A stretch of DNA of 27,199 nt from Candidatus Heimdallarchaeota archaeon (GTDB taxonomy: Archaea; Asgardarchaeota; Heimdallarchaeia; JABLTI01), in assembly GCA_030614005.1 (NCBI GenBank), contig JAUWKS010000043.1:1-27199 (forward strand), given 5' to 3'. How positions within the stretch are numbered: position 1 is the stretch's first letter; each line of letters begins with the position of its first letter. Both the position numbers and the translations under genes were made by a program. This document shows positions 21,405 through 27,199 of the stretch, piece after piece. The notes under the pieces are model-generated. The model was not told the origin of the DNA, ran no database searches, and saw only the letters and a list, made by a program, of their open reading frames with translations.

Positions 21405-24392
21405 ATGGATAACAAAGTAACACTCTTCCAAAAGATAACGCTCGATAATCTAATGTTACATGAATTTACTGAAGTTGACCTTGCTAAAGAGTCAATTACA
21501 TTGATAACTGGTGCGAATGGTTCTGGAAAAACGCAGATATTGGATGGGATTATTATTTGCATTGGGCACATTCCTACTCGAGCAAAGGCTAAAGGGATAG
21601 GCAGTTTGGTTGGGAAAAATGGCAAACATGCGAAAGTAACCCTTGAATTAGCAAATCCAATAATAAACTCTCGTAGAGCAATTACTACTATGGATAAAGA
21701 CCTGAATGCAGTAATTAATTCTGATCGTTTCAAAATAAATGCAAAAATATCTAGAAATGACAGTTCGATAATTTATTCATTAAACAACTCGCGAACAATT
21801 ATTAGAGGACGTTTGGTCTCTAGAAGAGATATTAGACGAATTTTCGAATCAATTGGTGTTCGAGGAGACAATCGATTAGCATTTACAGGAGAAGGCACAG
21901 TAGATGAGTTTGCTTCAAAAAGCGCTAAACGAAAATTGGATGTTTTATTAGATGTTACCGGACTTAAACAATACAGAGAAGAAGTAATAGCTTCTCAAGA
22001 CTCTCTTAGAGCAAGCATTCAGGAAATTGAGCCTTTAAAGCGAAAGTTGGAGACAGAAGGAAAGCTCCTCAATCTATGGAATGATGCTTTGAATATTCTA
22101 AAACAAAAAAAGAAACTAATGATAATGAAAACTAATCTGCAAAATGAAATGGCTTGGTCATATGTTATACGATTAGAAAAAAGAGTAGAGGGATTAAATA
22201 AAGAACGGGTAAAAATTCTAAAACAAAGAAGCGATAATGAAACCGCCATTCAAAAGAAGGATGAAGAGACCCTCGTTCTTAGACGAAAATTAAATTCGTT
22301 AGATGATGAATTAAATTCTTTTGAAGAACAGCAAAGAGTAAAAAATAGACGAGTAATAACTCTTGAGACCCAGCTAGAAAATGACAAAGATAATATTGCT
22401 AGTTTTCAAAAGGAAATTGCAAGATATTCTGAGCAAAAACAACAAATGGAGGCTCTATTAGCAAATAAGGATTTGAGTGCCAAGGATCTTAAAATTCAAG
22501 ATAAGCAAGAAGCTCTCGCAGTTAAATTAAAGAAACTTTCAATCCTGCAAGAGAAATGTTCGAAAGCCGAAAATGCATTAAGACTTTTACGAAAGCAAAT
22601 TATTGATGAACCAGAATTTGATTCATTTACCTCTAATGAGGAAGTTTTCGAGGGGAAAAGATTAACCAAATATGAAAATGAAATGGTTCACGCTTCACAA
22701 ATTTTCCGGCAAAAAGTAAAGCAGATATCAAAATCAGATGAAATTGCTGGACCCATAATTTCTCTAATTAAGATAAAAGATGGGCATAAATCTTGGGAAA
22801 AGGCGGTAAAAACAATCATTGGGCGTAACCTCTATGCATTTATTGCCAAAACAGATGATGCTTATAGGTTAGCAAAACGGATTTATGACGAAACTTGGCC
22901 TCGATGGAAGCCACCATTATCAGTATACAAAGTATCTGCAGAAGATGCAAAAAGAGCTTCCATTACAATAAAGAAACCCGAGTTTAAGGAAATTTATAAC
23001 ATAGCTGCCAACCTGATAGATGGTGATCCATATGCAATTGGATTTTTGAAACGAACAACGAGAAATGCATTAGCTGAAGATAAATACGATCCAAATAGTT
23101 TAACTGGTATTGCAAAGATAATTAAAACTAATATTTTAACTAAATCAGGTAAAAGTTATTACCTATATCACGGTGGTTTCGGAAGACCGCCCGTGCCAAT
23201 TAATAATCCATTAGGATATCAATTAAAACCACAAACTGGCAAAACCAGAATTTCGTTTTCAAATGAAAGAAAAATAAGAGTAGAAATCGCAAAATTAGAA
23301 AAAGAAAGGAGAGACCTAAAATTCGATGAAATTCAAACAATGGGTGCGATTTCAAAATTACATCAAGAAGTTCAAGCGTTAGGATTGCCTGATGAAAAGA
23401 TAATTGGTAAAATTGAAACAATAAATGAAATGATTGCTAATATTGAAGCAAAAGTTGCTGAATTTAAATCGCATTATACTCAACTAGATTCTGAATTGAG
23501 TATTGCTACTACTGCATATACCTCTTTCAAAAACTCCAAGGGAGAAATTACACAAAGAATCAATGAAATTGAGGAGACAATCGATTTACTAAGAATCGAA
23601 CAACATAGCTTAAAAGAAAAAGGGTCGAGGTTGTTAACTCTCGAACTTAGCTATGATGCAGAATATGATGAATTTATTGACGAGAAAAAAGAACGAGAAG
23701 AAACCGCCAAGAGAAAGGGAGAACGCCCTGAAGAAATTAGAAACTATTCGGATATTAGAGATGAGCTCAATAGAATAGAGGGACATCTTGAGTCAATCGG
23801 TATAAGTAATGTCGATGAAGATAAAATTGAAGATCAAAAAACAAAGGTTGAATCTCTTAAAAAATATATGACTGAAAGAGAGGTACATATAACTCGATTG
23901 CGTGCTGATTTAGAGGCAAGATTGGCCTTCTGGAATGGTGAATTGCAAGAGATAATAACTAATATCTCAAGAGCTATGAAGTTACTTCTTGGAGGAATTT
24001 TTGATAAGGTTCGTTTGAAAGTAACAAATATCAATAAACCAGATGAAGCTGGATTATACATTGAAGCAATTACAAAGGGAGACGATTTTAGGGACTTCCG
24101 TGAATTAAGTGGTGGAGAAAAAGTGCTTGCAATAGAAGGCTTAATTCTAGCTATGCATACTCTCACCGATTCACCAATTCATGCAATTGATGAATTTACA
24201 CAAAGATTAGATGAGAAAAATAAAGCACTAGCTTTTAGTATTGCAATAAGGACACAAAAATTAGCCAATGAAAACTCTCGTTTTATACCACAATTTATGC
24301 TTTTATGTCCAGAAGCTATTGATGTTAAGCTCTCGGAAAGTATACATCATGTGGTTGTTTCAGAAATGAAGGTGATGAACGTTGAACACTGA
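21405..24392 (+). CDS. SMC-family ATPase, SMC5/6-related type
   Basis: Walker A GANGSGKT, long coiled coils, and a central globular hinge ('IAGPIISLIKIKDGHKSWEKAVKTIIGRNLYAFI'). Signature LSGGEK, Walker B/D-loop 'SPIHAIDEFTQRLD', terminal strand 'QFMLLCP'. No central CxxC zinc hook. Confidence 0.9.
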   Translation: MDNKVTLFQKITLDNLMLHEFTEVDLAKESITLITGANGSGKTQILDGIIICIGHIPTRAKAKGIGSLVGKNGKHAKVTLELANPIINSRRAITTMDKDLNAVINSDRFKINAKISRNDSSIIYSLNNSRTIIRGRLVSRRDIRRIFESIGVRGDNRLAFTGEGTVDEFASKSAKRKLDVLLDVTGLKQYREEVIASQDSLRASIQEIEPLKRKLETEGKLLNLWNDALNILKQKKKLMIMKTNLQNEMAWSYVIRLEKRVEGLNKERVKILKQRSDNETAIQKKDEETLVLRRKLNSLDDELNSFEEQQRVKNRRVITLETQLENDKDNIASFQKEIARYSEQKQQMEALLANKDLSAKDLKIQDKQEALAVKLKKLSILQEKCSKAENALRLLRKQIIDEPEFDSFTSNEEVFEGKRLTKYENEMVHASQIFRQKVKQISKSDEIAGPIISLIKIKDGHKSWEKAVKTIIGRNLYAFIAKTDDAYRLAKRIYDETWPRWKPPLSVYKVSAEDAKRASITIKKPEFKEIYNIAANLIDGDPYAIGFLKRTTRNALAEDKYDPNSLTGIAKIIKTNILTKSGKSYYLYHGGFGRPPVPINNPLGYQLKPQTGKTRISFSNERKIRVEIAKLEKERRDLKFDEIQTMGAISKLHQEVQALGLPDEKIIGKIETINEMIANIEAKVAEFKSHYTQLDSELSIATTAYTSFKNSKGEITQRINEIEETIDLLRIEQHSLKEKGSRLLTLELSYDAEYDEFIDEKKEREETAKRKGERPEEIRNYSDIRDELNRIEGHLESIGISNVDEDKIEDQKTKVESLKKYMTEREVHITRLRADLEARLAFWNGELQEIITNISRAMKLLLGGIFDKVRLKVTNINKPDEAGLYIEAITKGDDFRDFRELSGGEKVLAIEGLILAMHTLTDSPIHAIDEFTQRLDEKNKALAFSIAIRTQKLANENSRFIPQFMLLCPEAIDVKLSESIHHVVVSEMKVMNVEH

Positions 24393-25287
24393 AGATGATA
24401 CTAATAATATTGAATTTATAATAGAGTCAAATTCAGGTGAATCTTCAACAGATGATGCTAAAAAAGGAGAAAATATCTCAGAACCAAAGGTCAAAGATAA
24501 ATCTAAATCTTCAAAGAAAAAAGTATCTTCAGTGTCTAATATAGAGAAAAAATTATGGAATGTCGCTAAAAAATACAAGTCGTTTTTCGATAAAGATGAA
24601 GTTCCTCAAATTGCTGAAAGTGAAGAAGATCGCCAAGAAGTATCTAATGCATATATGAAAATATCAACAAAACGTCATAGACAGTTGGATTCACGCGTTT
24701 ATCAATCTCTAACAAAAATGCAAAGGACACGAGATGCTAAAGTCGCTTTAGAAGGAACGACTGAAAAAGATAGATTACGAATGATTGCTTGGGAAGTGAA
24801 GATTCGTCTACAACCAATTATTTTTGCTGTAGGCGATAGCACAATAGAAATGGATATTTTTAACCTTCATAAGACCGGAGCCGATGTTCGAATTATTGAG
24901 GGCACCAGTCAAGAATTACTGATTGAAGATAATATCCTTGATGAGAACAGCATTGCAATAATTGATGACTTGCCCCTCAGAAAATTGACTAAAGACAAGA
25001 AAGCAAAACTGAAAAAGGAGATCATTGAGAAATTTGGTGGAAAGATTTTCTCAAAAGATGATTTTAATAGAAAACTTACCAGTCTTTATGCTGATTTGAT
25101 TTCCTTGATGGTGCGAGAAAAACAAATTATACTTGTAAAACAGCAAGATAATCGATTCAAGTTTATAACCGTAGAACAAGACGGAGATGTTGACTTTGAA
25201 CATTTAGAAAGTCAATCGCTCGTAATTACACCAAAAATGGTGCAGCTACAGAGTGTAGTTATGAGAAGAAGGAGTAAGAAGCTATGA
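24382..25287 (+). CDS. Putative kleisin (ScpA/Nse4-like) subunit
   Basis: TTG start after AGGTGA, overlapping the SMC stop by 11 nt. Charged, disordered-looking N-terminus. C-terminal 'LTSLYADLISLMVREKQIILVKQQDNRFKFITV' resembles the kleisin C-terminal winged helix. The ORF is secure; the kleisin call is an inference. Confidence 0.55.
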   Translation: MNTEDDTNNIEFIIESNSGESSTDDAKKGENISEPKVKDKSKSSKKKVSSVSNIEKKLWNVAKKYKSFFDKDEVPQIAESEEDRQEVSNAYMKISTKRHRQLDSRVYQSLTKMQRTRDAKVALEGTTEKDRLRMIAWEVKIRLQPIIFAVGDSTIEMDIFNLHKTGADVRIIEGTSQELLIEDNILDENSIAIIDDLPLRKLTKDKKAKLKKEIIEKFGGKIFSKDDFNRKLTSLYADLISLMVREKQIILVKQQDNRFKFITVEQDGDVDFEHLESQSLVITPKMVQLQSVVMRRRSKKL

Positions 25288-25913
25288 TTGATAACAGGCT
25301 AGAAGATTACGACGAAGCAGTGGAAAACACCAGAGGCTCTTCCGAAGTAGAAGAAAAATTAGCAGAAGATTTTGGAGAAATGGATCCACAGTTATTTGTA
25401 GCATTATCTTCGCGTTGGAGAAGAGAAAATGGAGCCCTTGCTTTTGGTATAGAGAAAAGACAATTGCGCAATAAGACAGGTTTATCATTGATGGAACTTG
25501 AAACACTGCTTGAAGATTTTGGTAAAAAAGTAAAAAGAATAGGATTGGAACTAATTTCATATGTTGAGAATAATCAAGAATGGTATTGTTTACGGTCGAT
25601 ATTTGTCGTTCCAAATGAATTGTCATTAGATGAACAAGCAGTTTTAGGAACAATCATTTTCTTAATAGAGAAAAAAACTGATCACCGAAGAAGGGAAGAA
25701 ACACCAATTACTTCAACAGAATTAATTGAAAGATTGGTAAAAAGAGGATACTACTCTGAATATACATTAACGAAAATCTTACGTAGATTAGATAATTCTG
25801 GTTATGTCCGAAGAGGGGGAAACAAAATACGCTACGGTGCTAGAACAAAGATTGAGATTTCTTCTGAAAGGCGGAAAGAAATAGCTGATAGAACAGAAGG
25901 TATGCTCCTATAA
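25284..25913 (+). CDS. Tandem winged-helix KITE protein (Nse1/Nse3-MAGE-like)
   Basis: ATGA overlap with the upstream gene. 'LLEDFGKKVKRIGLELI' matches WH-A, 'LSLDEQAVLGTIIFLI' and 'ILRRLDNSGYV' match WH-B, and 'IRYGARTKIEI' matches the Nse1/MAGE C-terminal G-x-R-x-x-x-E motif. Confidence 0.7.
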   Translation: MIDNRLEDYDEAVENTRGSSEVEEKLAEDFGEMDPQLFVALSSRWRRENGALAFGIEKRQLRNKTGLSLMELETLLEDFGKKVKRIGLELISYVENNQEWYCLRSIFVVPNELSLDEQAVLGTIIFLIEKKTDHRRREETPITSTELIERLVKRGYYSEYTLTKILRRLDNSGYVRRGGNKIRYGARTKIEISSERRKEIADRTEGMLL

Positions 25914-25933: not shown

Positions 25934-26422
25934 ATGGCCGTTGTAACTACTACTACTGTTTCGGTTAGATGTGCAGGACACAATGGTAGAGCCACGCTAA
26001 AAGAAGCTGTAGAAGCAGGTTGGAGAATGTGCAGAGTCTGTAGGTCATTTATCTGTCCAAAATGTATCGAAGAGTTTGATTTAAAAATGAATGGCACTTG
26101 TCCATCTTTTATTTTCGGAATGGATCAACACCAGCTTAGTCCAGGACCTATTCCAGTTGAAGAAGTAATCCTATTTGCAGAATCAAACAAACAAGAAGGA
26201 ATAACCGGTGGATTGTTAGAAGCACTCTTCTTTGAAGATGAACAAATGGGTTTTATGCCTTTTTATGCTACTATTGAGAAGAAAAAAGAGGAAGAAGAAG
26301 AGGAGGAAGATGAATTAAGTTTAGAGCCTCCAAAAATACAAGAAGAAATGTGGTCCTCTTTCGGATTTGTGATGACTAAAAGAAGACGAGGCAAATTCAT
26401 TACTTGGGAGAAAATTGGTTAA
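25934..26422 (+). CDS. RING-like zinc-finger protein with acidic tail (putative E3 ligase)
   Basis: GAGGTGA RBS. Ligand pattern C13-x2-H16-x16-C33-x2-C36-x4-C41-x2-C44-x11-C56(P)-x9-H66, followed by an E7-D-E tract and C-terminal KRRRGK. Confidence 0.65.
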   Translation: MAVVTTTTVSVRCAGHNGRATLKEAVEAGWRMCRVCRSFICPKCIEEFDLKMNGTCPSFIFGMDQHQLSPGPIPVEEVILFAESNKQEGITGGLLEALFFEDEQMGFMPFYATIEKKKEEEEEEEDELSLEPPKIQEEMWSSFGFVMTKRRRGKFITWEKIG

Positions 26423-26456
26423 GGAATTTTAGAAATTAACAACAGGTGGAATACAG

Positions 26457-27092
26457 GTGACAGAAAAAAAACAAAAACAGAAAAAACTACTTTCCGAATT
26501 ACTTGGTGAAGTTGCACCTGAGGAAAAACCTTCCGAAAAAATTGAAGAAGAATCTCGGTCTGTTGACACTGAAGAGGTTGCAGAGGAAATTCTAGAGGAA
26601 TATCCACTAAATGAGATCTATCCTGTATATATTCTACATAGAGTCGTTTATGAAACAATAGTTATGTGTAAGAAAGCCATTCCAAATGAAGCAATTGGAA
26701 TTCTCTTAGGATATAAGATGCAATACAAAGGAAAGAATTACGTCAAAGTAGTTGATTGGGTCACAGGCAAAGCAAACCAAAGTCAGGTATTTGCAGAATT
26801 TACACCTGAGGGCGTAAGACAATACACTACGTTAATTGATGAAAGATACGGTGAAAGTGAAAATCGTCCAAGAATTGTGGGTATAATTCATTCCCATCCA
26901 TTTGGGTCTAATCCACATTTTTCAGGAACAGATTATAATACATTTCTGAATTTTCCTTATGATGCAGAGCACAATGTATTCGTTCTAGTAGATCCAAAAT
27001 CTGGCTACTACAAGACATATATGGTACTAACTAATGAAGAAAAACAAAAGGATTTGATTGAAGTAAACTGGGTTGAATATACAGCACGATAA
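26457..27092 (+). CDS. JAB/MPN+ (JAMM) metallo-isopeptidase
   Basis: 'PNEAIGILLG' supplies the catalytic Glu, 'VGIIHSHPFGSNPHFSGTDYNTF' supplies HxH..S..D, and 'VFVLVDP' follows. GTG start after AGGTGG. Confidence 0.9.
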   Translation: MTEKKQKQKKLLSELLGEVAPEEKPSEKIEEESRSVDTEEVAEEILEEYPLNEIYPVYILHRVVYETIVMCKKAIPNEAIGILLGYKMQYKGKNYVKVVDWVTGKANQSQVFAEFTPEGVRQYTTLIDERYGESENRPRIVGIIHSHPFGSNPHFSGTDYNTFLNFPYDAEHNVFVLVDPKSGYYKTYMVLTNEEKQKDLIEVNWVEYTAR

Positions 27093-27104
27093 AGAGGTGA
27101 AAAA

Positions 27105-27199
27105 ATGACTGAAAAACCACTAAATGTAGGATTTTATGAGGATGATCTTGAAGATCGTAATAGACGATATTACGGAACAGATAACCTCAAACGAATAAA
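27105..27199 (+). CDS. 5' fragment of next operon gene (truncated by window end); possibly E1/ThiF-like
   Basis: GAGGTGA at 27094-27100, ATG at 27105, open to the window end: MTEKPLNVGFYEDDLEDRNRRYYGTDNLKRI. The gene start is well supported; the E1-like identity is weak. Confidence 0.6.
   Translation, partial: MTEKPLNVGFYEDDLEDRNRRYYGTDNLKRI

Follow-up and report, generated by a model that had tools for sequence, protein, structure and literature searches.

The gene at positions 26457..27092 of the forward strand (+) encodes a protein of 211 aa that is a complete MPN+ JAMM metalloprotease. This protein is probably an active stand-alone isopeptidase, the peptidase arm of a private ubiquitin-like (Ubl) cassette that is genetically tied to an Smc5/6-like operon. 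We infer its activity, its substrate and its targets from the motif, the fold, the gene linkage and the pattern of Ubl tails. A JAMM peptidase within a prokaryotic E1-E2-Ubl cassette is an already known arrangement. Here the cassette is attached to an Smc5/6-like complex in four Asgard lineages and one Planctomycetota clade. In the latest survey of SMC evolution, the link of Smc5/6 to a ligase is taken to be a eukaryotic addition.

The JAMM gene and its protein

The gene was identified from its open reading frame and translation, a Pfam Prok-JAB match, an AlphaFold model and the fold match of this model to Rpn11. It starts with GTG, 7 nt downstream of a Shine-Dalgarno-like AGGTGG (26444..26449, +) read from the sequence. 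As it lies 34 nt 3' of the stop codon of a Cys-rich gene of 162 aa and 13 nt 5' of the ATG of the next gene, it forms part of a tight co-directional gene row. The Prok-JAB model (PF14464) is matched above its cut-off (35.6 bits against 25, E 9.6e-9). The cut-off of the eukaryote-type JAB model (PF01398) is missed with 17.0 bits against 22.5, as is that of the NCBIfam model desamp_Halo for the archaeal JAMM1 desampylase HvJAMM1/PfJAMM1 (24.7 bits against 130), and no CSN5_C domain was found in the protein with Pfam.

The complete catalytic set that the first-pass annotation of this DNA had proposed is present. The catalytic Glu78 lies in the segment PNEAIG (codon 26688..26690, +) and the zinc and catalytic motif H145-S-H147-x8-S156-x2-D159 is encoded by 26889..26933 (+), with the codons of H145-S146-H147 at 26889-26897, of S156 at 26922-26924 and of D159 at 26931-26933. 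E78, H145, S146, H147, S156 and D159 are all invariant in an alignment of 37 orthologues with identities down to 38%. The spacer between H147 and S156 has eight residues (PFGSNPHF; x8) whereas that of Rpn11 has seven (x7), and the HMMER alignment to Rpn11 requires a gap of one residue at this place. The longer spacer could alter the geometry of the site. The Rpn11-like flanks pointed out earlier were recovered in the same alignment, in which 'fsgtdyntflnf' matches 'LSGVDINTQQSF' and 'vfvlvdp' matches 'VAVVVDP' of Rpn11.

In the AlphaFold model the α/β MPN fold is confident, with pLDDT >90 at residues 51-211, and the domain ends at the C-terminus of the protein. A hairpin (106-108/113-115) occupies the place of Ins-1 of Rpn11 and two of its residues, A113 and F115, are invariant in the family; as modelled, it would fit the binding of a Ubl tail. 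The acidic N-terminal extension of about 55 aa noted at first sight also exists (aa 1-55, 26457..26621, +), with the refinement that residues 1-11 form a lysine-rich head and the acidic body comprises residues 12-55 (16 D/E versus 3 K/R). The extension is predicted to be disordered (pLDDT <50 at residues 1-11 and 17-50), with a short helix at 12-15. It is restricted to the Heimdall orthologues, being absent from the JAMMs of Asgardarchaeum and Planctomycetota (158-184 aa), and the Hodarchaeales JAMMs carry C-terminal tails instead. Within it a motif L-x-x-L-L-G-E (aa 11-17, 26487-26507) is kept only among Heimdall orthologues and could be a docking motif.

Relation to Rpn11, CSN5 and other MPN proteins

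The x8 JAMMs make up a small distinct clade. A search with the family profile among 1.84 billion representative proteins returned 13 clusters at E<=1e-30; relaxing the cut-off to E<=1e-10 raised the number to 43, and to E<=0.001 it was 320. No fused forms of the family were found when the search was run without a length limit. At E<=1e-30 the proteins have 162-297 aa, the exception being a 472-aa protein with an x7 motif. The motif HSHPFG-x2-P-x-F/L-S (x8) occurs in every family member and x7 in every outgroup sequence. A divergent sister subclade of metagenome proteins (P0088/P0089/P0092) keeps the x8 spacer, with ...DLS instead of ...P-x-F-S.

Family members score at least 112 bits against the profile. 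Next come short prokaryotic JAMMs of 150-200 aa, which carry the x7 motif of Rpn11 type (HSHPG[YFH]GCF[LM]S) and score 41-80 bits, followed by eukaryotic Rpn11 (22-32), CSN5 (7-30) and the three remaining MPN proteins of the source genome (12-16). The suggestion that the protein resembles Rpn11 more than it resembles short prokaryotic JABs is not supported by these scores. The nearest outgroup JAMMs that could be located in genomes are those of canonical Loki-type JAMM-E1-E2-Ubl cassettes.

Among solved structures the order is different. Searched against the PDB, the family profile matched Rpn11 at 1.5e-6 (31 bits), the Caldiarchaeum Rpn11 homologue at 1e-4 and CSN5 at E 0.4, with no match to AMSH, BRCC36, JAMM1 or Cap3 at E<=10. 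When folds were compared, the model gave Z 19.3 to ubiquitin-bound yeast Rpn11 (rmsd 2.2 over 142 residues), 18.8 to the Caldiarchaeum protein (CsRpn11) with ubiquitin, 18.1 to CSN5, 16.3 to PfJAMM1, 16.3 to BRCC36, 15.7 to Cap3 and 15.0 to AMSH, so that the best two matches are both ubiquitin-bound structures. The label 'Rpn11/CSN5-like' given at first is thus acceptable solely in the sense that no solved protein comes closer than Rpn11, in profile or in fold; in sequence the short prokaryotic x7 JAMMs are nearest.

In the trees the family forms a single clade (100% support) on a long stem, outside the CsRpn11-like clade with x7 'HSHPGxGCFxS'. The MPN phylogeny that had been proposed as a check was run with named eukaryotic Rpn11 and CSN5 taken from the profile search, and AMSH, BRCC36 and Cap3 were compared by the PDB profile and fold rankings. 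In the best tree eukaryotic Rpn11/CSN5 group with two other Asgard MPN families (95% SH-aLRT), which include the 329-aa and 285-aa paralogues of the same genome (contigs C9, C30), and the SMC-linked JAMM family stands apart. Forcing this family and eukaryotic Rpn11/CSN5 into one clade makes the tree 15.6 lnL worse, but such a sister position is not rejected by the AU test (p 0.17). The core of the family tree is a polytomy and does not show whether transfer went from archaea to bacteria or the other way. The protein belongs with the Ubl peptidases encoded in prokaryotic operons, as a variant with the x8 spacer.

The three further MPN proteins of the genome lie on contigs C63, C30 and C9 (loci L048, L049, L051). 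Both larger paralogues (285 and 329 aa) score above the cut-off of the eukaryote-type JAB model, the two values being 65.5 and 48.1 bits, and the C63 protein (145 aa) is JAMM1-like, with a score of 53.9 against desamp_Halo.

The E1, the Ubl and the E2-like protein

The gene directly downstream of the JAMM gene encodes a ThiF-type E1 (27106..27199, +), of which the first 31 codons are present before it is cut by the contig end. It is 90% identical to the E1 of a close relative, and this near-identical E1 matches ThiF (PF00899) at 1e-38. The window, that is the whole stretch of 27,199 nucleotides analysed, is the whole contig, and its last 127 nt (27073-27199) are identical to the reverse-strand end of another contig from this genome, C94. 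This overlap indicates that the gene row continues there with E1, Ubl and E2-like genes: on C94 (L105, G000:C94:14800-24796) the row comprises an E1 of 284 aa, a Ubl of 103 aa, an E2-like protein of 259 aa and an acidic protein of 98 aa. Past the acidic gene the row goes on with two aromatic-amino-acid-lyase genes. A rubredoxin domain is inserted in the first lyase of the close relative (L031, 12942-14660; PF00221 + PF00301), and presumably the same holds for the source genome.

The 103-aa protein matches no Pfam family. It models as a β-grasp with pLDDT 86.6, its top fold matches being SUMO1, ubiquitin, ISG15, Hub1 and the Caldiarchaeum ubiquitin CsUb, and its C-terminal Val-Gly is invariant in the alignment. 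The E2-like protein has an invariant H-P-R with a Cys 10 residues further on. Of its best 20 PDB profile matches 19 are to E2 enzymes, with the alignment falling on the active-site segment, although these are weak (best E 0.0085), and against UQ_con it gives E 0.004.

The C-terminus of the Ubl varies among lineages, as would be expected of a modifier dependent on a processing peptidase. It ends at Gly without any extension in all 8 Heimdall loci and in 4/4 loci of Planctomycete clade A, whereas a tail of 1-3 variable residues follows in 14 of the 15 Hermod loci and a tail TCKT in Coatesbacteria. In one Planctomycete (L067:3349-4335, +) the Ubl is fused in frame to the E2 (...PVVG|GLPPKIFNRR...). 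This natural variation (none, 1-4 residues, E2 fusion) provides ready-made candidate substrates on which the JAMM protein can be tried.

Three short hydrophobic strand repeats were noticed in the tail of the E2-like protein (L105:7789-8568, -), reading GG[IV][KR]II in Heimdall and VRILDDED in Hermod. Like strands occur in the 98-aa acidic protein (IKILSERD, L031:12500-12796) and at the end of the Loki-type E2 (DDIIIIDD, L106:5353-5958). All these strands resemble SUMO-interaction motifs and may bind the Ubl non-covalently.

Linkage to the SMC row

Upstream of the JAMM gene the row consists of an SMC-like ATPase (21405..24392, +; SMC_N 71.9 bits and a weak SMC hinge), a kleisin-like gene (24382..25287, +) recognized from conserved gene order, a winged-helix kite-like gene (25284..25913, +) recognized from a weak winged-helix match and conserved gene order, and the open reading frame of the Cys-rich zinc protein (25934..26422, +), which has no Pfam match. 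The zinc-protein gene adjoins the JAMM gene in Heimdall, Sifarchaeum, Asgardarchaeum and Planctomycetota.

Linkage was scanned with one genome per species, which gave 43 loci of the JAMM family. The complete order SMC-kleisin-kite-ZnF-JAMM-E1-Ubl-E2 is found in Heimdallarchaeota and in a Planctomycetota/Brocadiia clade. It is kept through the E1 in Asgardarchaeum abyssi, where the Ubl is on a separate contig, and to the end of a short contig in Sifarchaeum. Hermodarchaeota differ in that about 4 kb separate the JAMM-E1 pair from the SMC-kleisin-kite-ZnF row. This stretch contains the genes for the Ubl and the E2, another paralogue of the zinc protein and, on the opposite strand, a transglutaminase-like gene (PF01841, 4e-24; L042:11380-13366, -, and further Hermod loci). 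In Coatesbacteria one locus has JAMM-E1-Ubl-E2 and no SMC genes within 10 kb. The Planctomycete contigs with the operon have 62-71% GC, as against 34% in the source DNA, and thus are not contamination.

The E1 gene is directly 3' of the JAMM gene in 34/34 non-orphan loci with downstream sequence. The placement of the JAMM gene inside an SMC operon, as it had first been described, is right in that the row from SMC to JAMM recurs; the constant partner of the JAMM gene, however, is the E1 and not the zinc protein, and the gene is to be counted with the JAMM-E1-Ubl-E2 cassette and not with the SMC set.

In a sample of 300 Asgard genomes, 27-28 have the Ubl together with a JAMM orthologue, 2 have the JAMM alone, 2-3 the Ubl alone and about 268 neither. 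The Ubl and strong JAMM orthologues share the same families (8/10, 17-18/19, 1-2/2 and 1/1 genomes). In a fifth family, represented by one sampled genome that is 80% complete, the JAMM was found and the Ubl was not, and the other Asgard families sampled had neither the Ubl nor a strong JAMM orthologue.

An orphan clade of Planctomycetota (L068, L070-L073; 33-40% GC) has its JAMM member after two genes, one with an MshEN domain and one whose 450-aa product combines an HU DNA-binding domain and HATPase_c_2. No E1, Ubl or E2 was found within the examined flanks of these loci (4-10 kb each side), so the JAMM fold can work outside the cassette. In the family tree this clade nests beside operon-linked bacterial members with 98/91 support.

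Proposed function and alternative explanations

A Ubl-directed role for the JAMM protein is strongly supported by the E1, the β-grasp Ubl and the E2-like gene directly downstream. Since the JAMM gene is tied to this cassette in both Asgard and Planctomycetota, its product most likely both trims and removes that Ubl. The Ins-1-like hairpin (106-115; A113, F115) would hold the C-terminal tail of the Ubl as a β-strand, and the zinc site (H145, H147, D159) together with E78 and S156 would hydrolyse the bond that follows the terminal Gly. With a Ubl that is tailed or fused to the E2 (Hermodarchaeota, Coatesbacteria, one Planctomycete), such a cut would expose the Gly. In the source genome the protein would strip the Ubl from conjugates and so reverse or edit the modifications attached by E1, E2 and, probably, the putative RING-like zinc subunit. 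The obvious candidate targets would be the SMC complex itself or proteins met on DNA.

The occurrence of tails and of an E2 fusion in some lineages and of neither in the source genome argues for a peptidase that both processes and deconjugates. A protease of maturation only, which exposes the terminal Gly of the Ubl without deconjugation, would be consistent with the tails of 1-4 residues, with the Ubl-E2 fusion and with the fact that the JAMM is the only peptidase encoded in the cassette. We consider this very unlikely, as the Ubl already ends in Gly in 8 Heimdall and 4 Planctomycete loci, in which the catalytic residues of the JAMM are intact. With the Ubl encoded in its mature form in the source genome and the catalytic residues all kept, the role retained there would be deconjugation.

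Erasure by the isopeptidase of marks made by the adjacent putative RING-like protein, as the first-pass annotation had it, is plausible. A wider role as the eraser in a reversible Ubl cycle on the Smc5/6-like complex or its DNA-bound contacts is a tentative proposal, which we regard as possible. If it were true, the partnership of Smc5/6 with a Ubl ligase and protease would have a prokaryotic forerunner in Asgard archaea and Planctomycetota and would not be a eukaryotic invention. A catalytic mutant of the JAMM that traps conjugates would offer a handle on what the SMC-linked Ubl system modifies.

The alternative that survives best, even if we judge it unlikely, is an off-switch of the Cap3 type. 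Here the JAMM would strip the Ubl from the pathway enzymes or from a primed target until a trigger arrives, for example foreign DNA caught by the SMC complex, and the locus would serve in defence or plasmid restriction. Both eukaryotic Smc5/6 and bacterial Wadjet restrict episomal DNA. The structural match to Cap3 (Z 15.7) and weak PADLOC matches (JAB 2.9e-7, Cap2 'E1-E2' 5.9e-18) are in line with such a function. So is the sharing of the operon by Asgard and Planctomycetota with host-like GC in each (34% versus 62-71%), which indicates an old transfer. However, the locus is near-universal and syntenic in two Asgard families (8/10 and 17-18/19 genomes), unlike sporadic defence islands; genes for a nuclease, a CD-NTase or another effector are absent; and no PADLOC or NCBIfam model is matched at a family-level score.

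Cleavage of a substrate other than the Ubl, such as the kleisin in the manner of a separase-like ring opener or another protein of the operon, could be suggested by the presence of the JAMM gene in the same row as SMC-kleisin-kite and by the orphan members without a Ubl in the examined flanks. It is nevertheless highly improbable, because adjacency of JAMM and E1 is universal while that of JAMM and kleisin is not, and the top structural matches are Ubl-bound forms. To our knowledge the characterised JAMM enzymes all cut after a Ubl-type C-terminus.

Least probable of all is a sulfur-carrier or biosynthetic JAMM (Mec+/CysO or QbsD type) that would free a small-molecule adduct from a β-grasp protein thiocarboxylated by the E1, since, although trios of JAB, E1 and β-grasp protein of this type are known and the E1 scores highest against ThiF and MoeB models, every such score is far under the cut-off, the constant partners are the zinc protein and an E2-like protein with an HPN-like motif and Cys, no rhodanese or sulfur-metabolism genes were found nearby and the cassette is linked to an SMC complex.

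Comparison with known systems

In eukaryotic Smc5/6, with its Nse1 RING and Nse2 SUMO ligase, an SMC complex is likewise coupled to a Ubl ligase, whereas here a Ubl protease is also encoded alongside. SENPs and DUBs, which remove SUMO and ubiquitin in eukaryotes, are either cysteine proteases or JAMMs of unrelated type, and none is a subunit of Smc5/6. The likeness between the two Smc5/6-Ubl links is one of arrangement and is not evidence of common descent. Archaeal SMC-kleisin-kite operons related to SMC5/6 have been described in a preprint on SMC evolution that calls the Nse1 RING a eukaryotic innovation and whose text, when searched, showed neither a JAMM nor a Ubl cassette of this kind (10.1101/2024.01.07.573240). 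A full-text search of a limited literature collection found no paper linking an SMC operon to a JAMM/E1/Ubl cassette.

The prokaryotic systems Bil (BilC), Type I Bub (BubCD) and CBASS (Cap3) also encode a JAB peptidase together with E1, E2 and Ubl, and the Ubl-E2 fusion of the Planctomycete L067 is comparable to the BubAB fusions found in Type I Bub operons (PMC11601603). Unlike in these systems, here the E1 and the E2 are separate genes, the Ubl is a single β-grasp, the cassette is linked to SMC genes and the locus is near-universal in two Asgard families. No CD-NTase or DUF6527 gene and no Cap2-type E1-E2 fusion was found at the JAMM loci examined. With NCBIfam and PADLOC the JAMM protein gave only generic matches below threshold, and for membership in the Bil or Bub JAB families the comparison covered the generic PADLOC JAB match (2.9e-7).

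Eukaryotic Rpn11/PSMD14 shares the flanks SG-x-D-x-NT and V-x-VDP with the JAMM protein. It has, however, about 310 aa with a C-terminal helical lid domain (PF23594 in the eukaryotic references), whereas the 211-aa protein has no such lid-helix domain, has the x8 spacer and lacks 'GFGCWLS'.

A closer counterpart is CsRpn11, from the E1-E2-RING-Ub operons of Caldiarchaeum subterraneum and Asgard archaea (6FJV, 6FNN, 6FNO; PMC6043591, PMC5654768), which is also a short stand-alone MPN+ protein with no MPN- partner gene. This homologue reportedly processes its ubiquitin precursor and acts as a deubiquitinase (PMC6043591). At both loci the peptidase gene is accompanied by those for a ThiF-type E1, an E2 and a small zinc/RING protein, together with a β-grasp Ubl, possibly tailed. 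They differ in that the JAMM studied here has x8 (HSHPFGxxPxFS) instead of x7 and belongs to a separate well-supported clade, the Ubl ends in VG and not in GG, the E2 is highly divergent and the cassette is tied to an Smc5/6-like operon.

The Loki-type cassettes of other Asgard genomes (L106-L109; G281, G049, G194, G209) have the same order of JAMM then E1, but no SMC genes. They encode an x7 JAMM of 162 aa (PF01398 48.5 bits), an E1 (ThiF 158 bits) and an E2 (UQ_con 37.8 bits), and their Ubl, on the opposite strand, ends in GG followed by 0-3 further residues. Adjoining these cassettes are one or two genes for proteins of about 300 aa that give weak P-loop matches.
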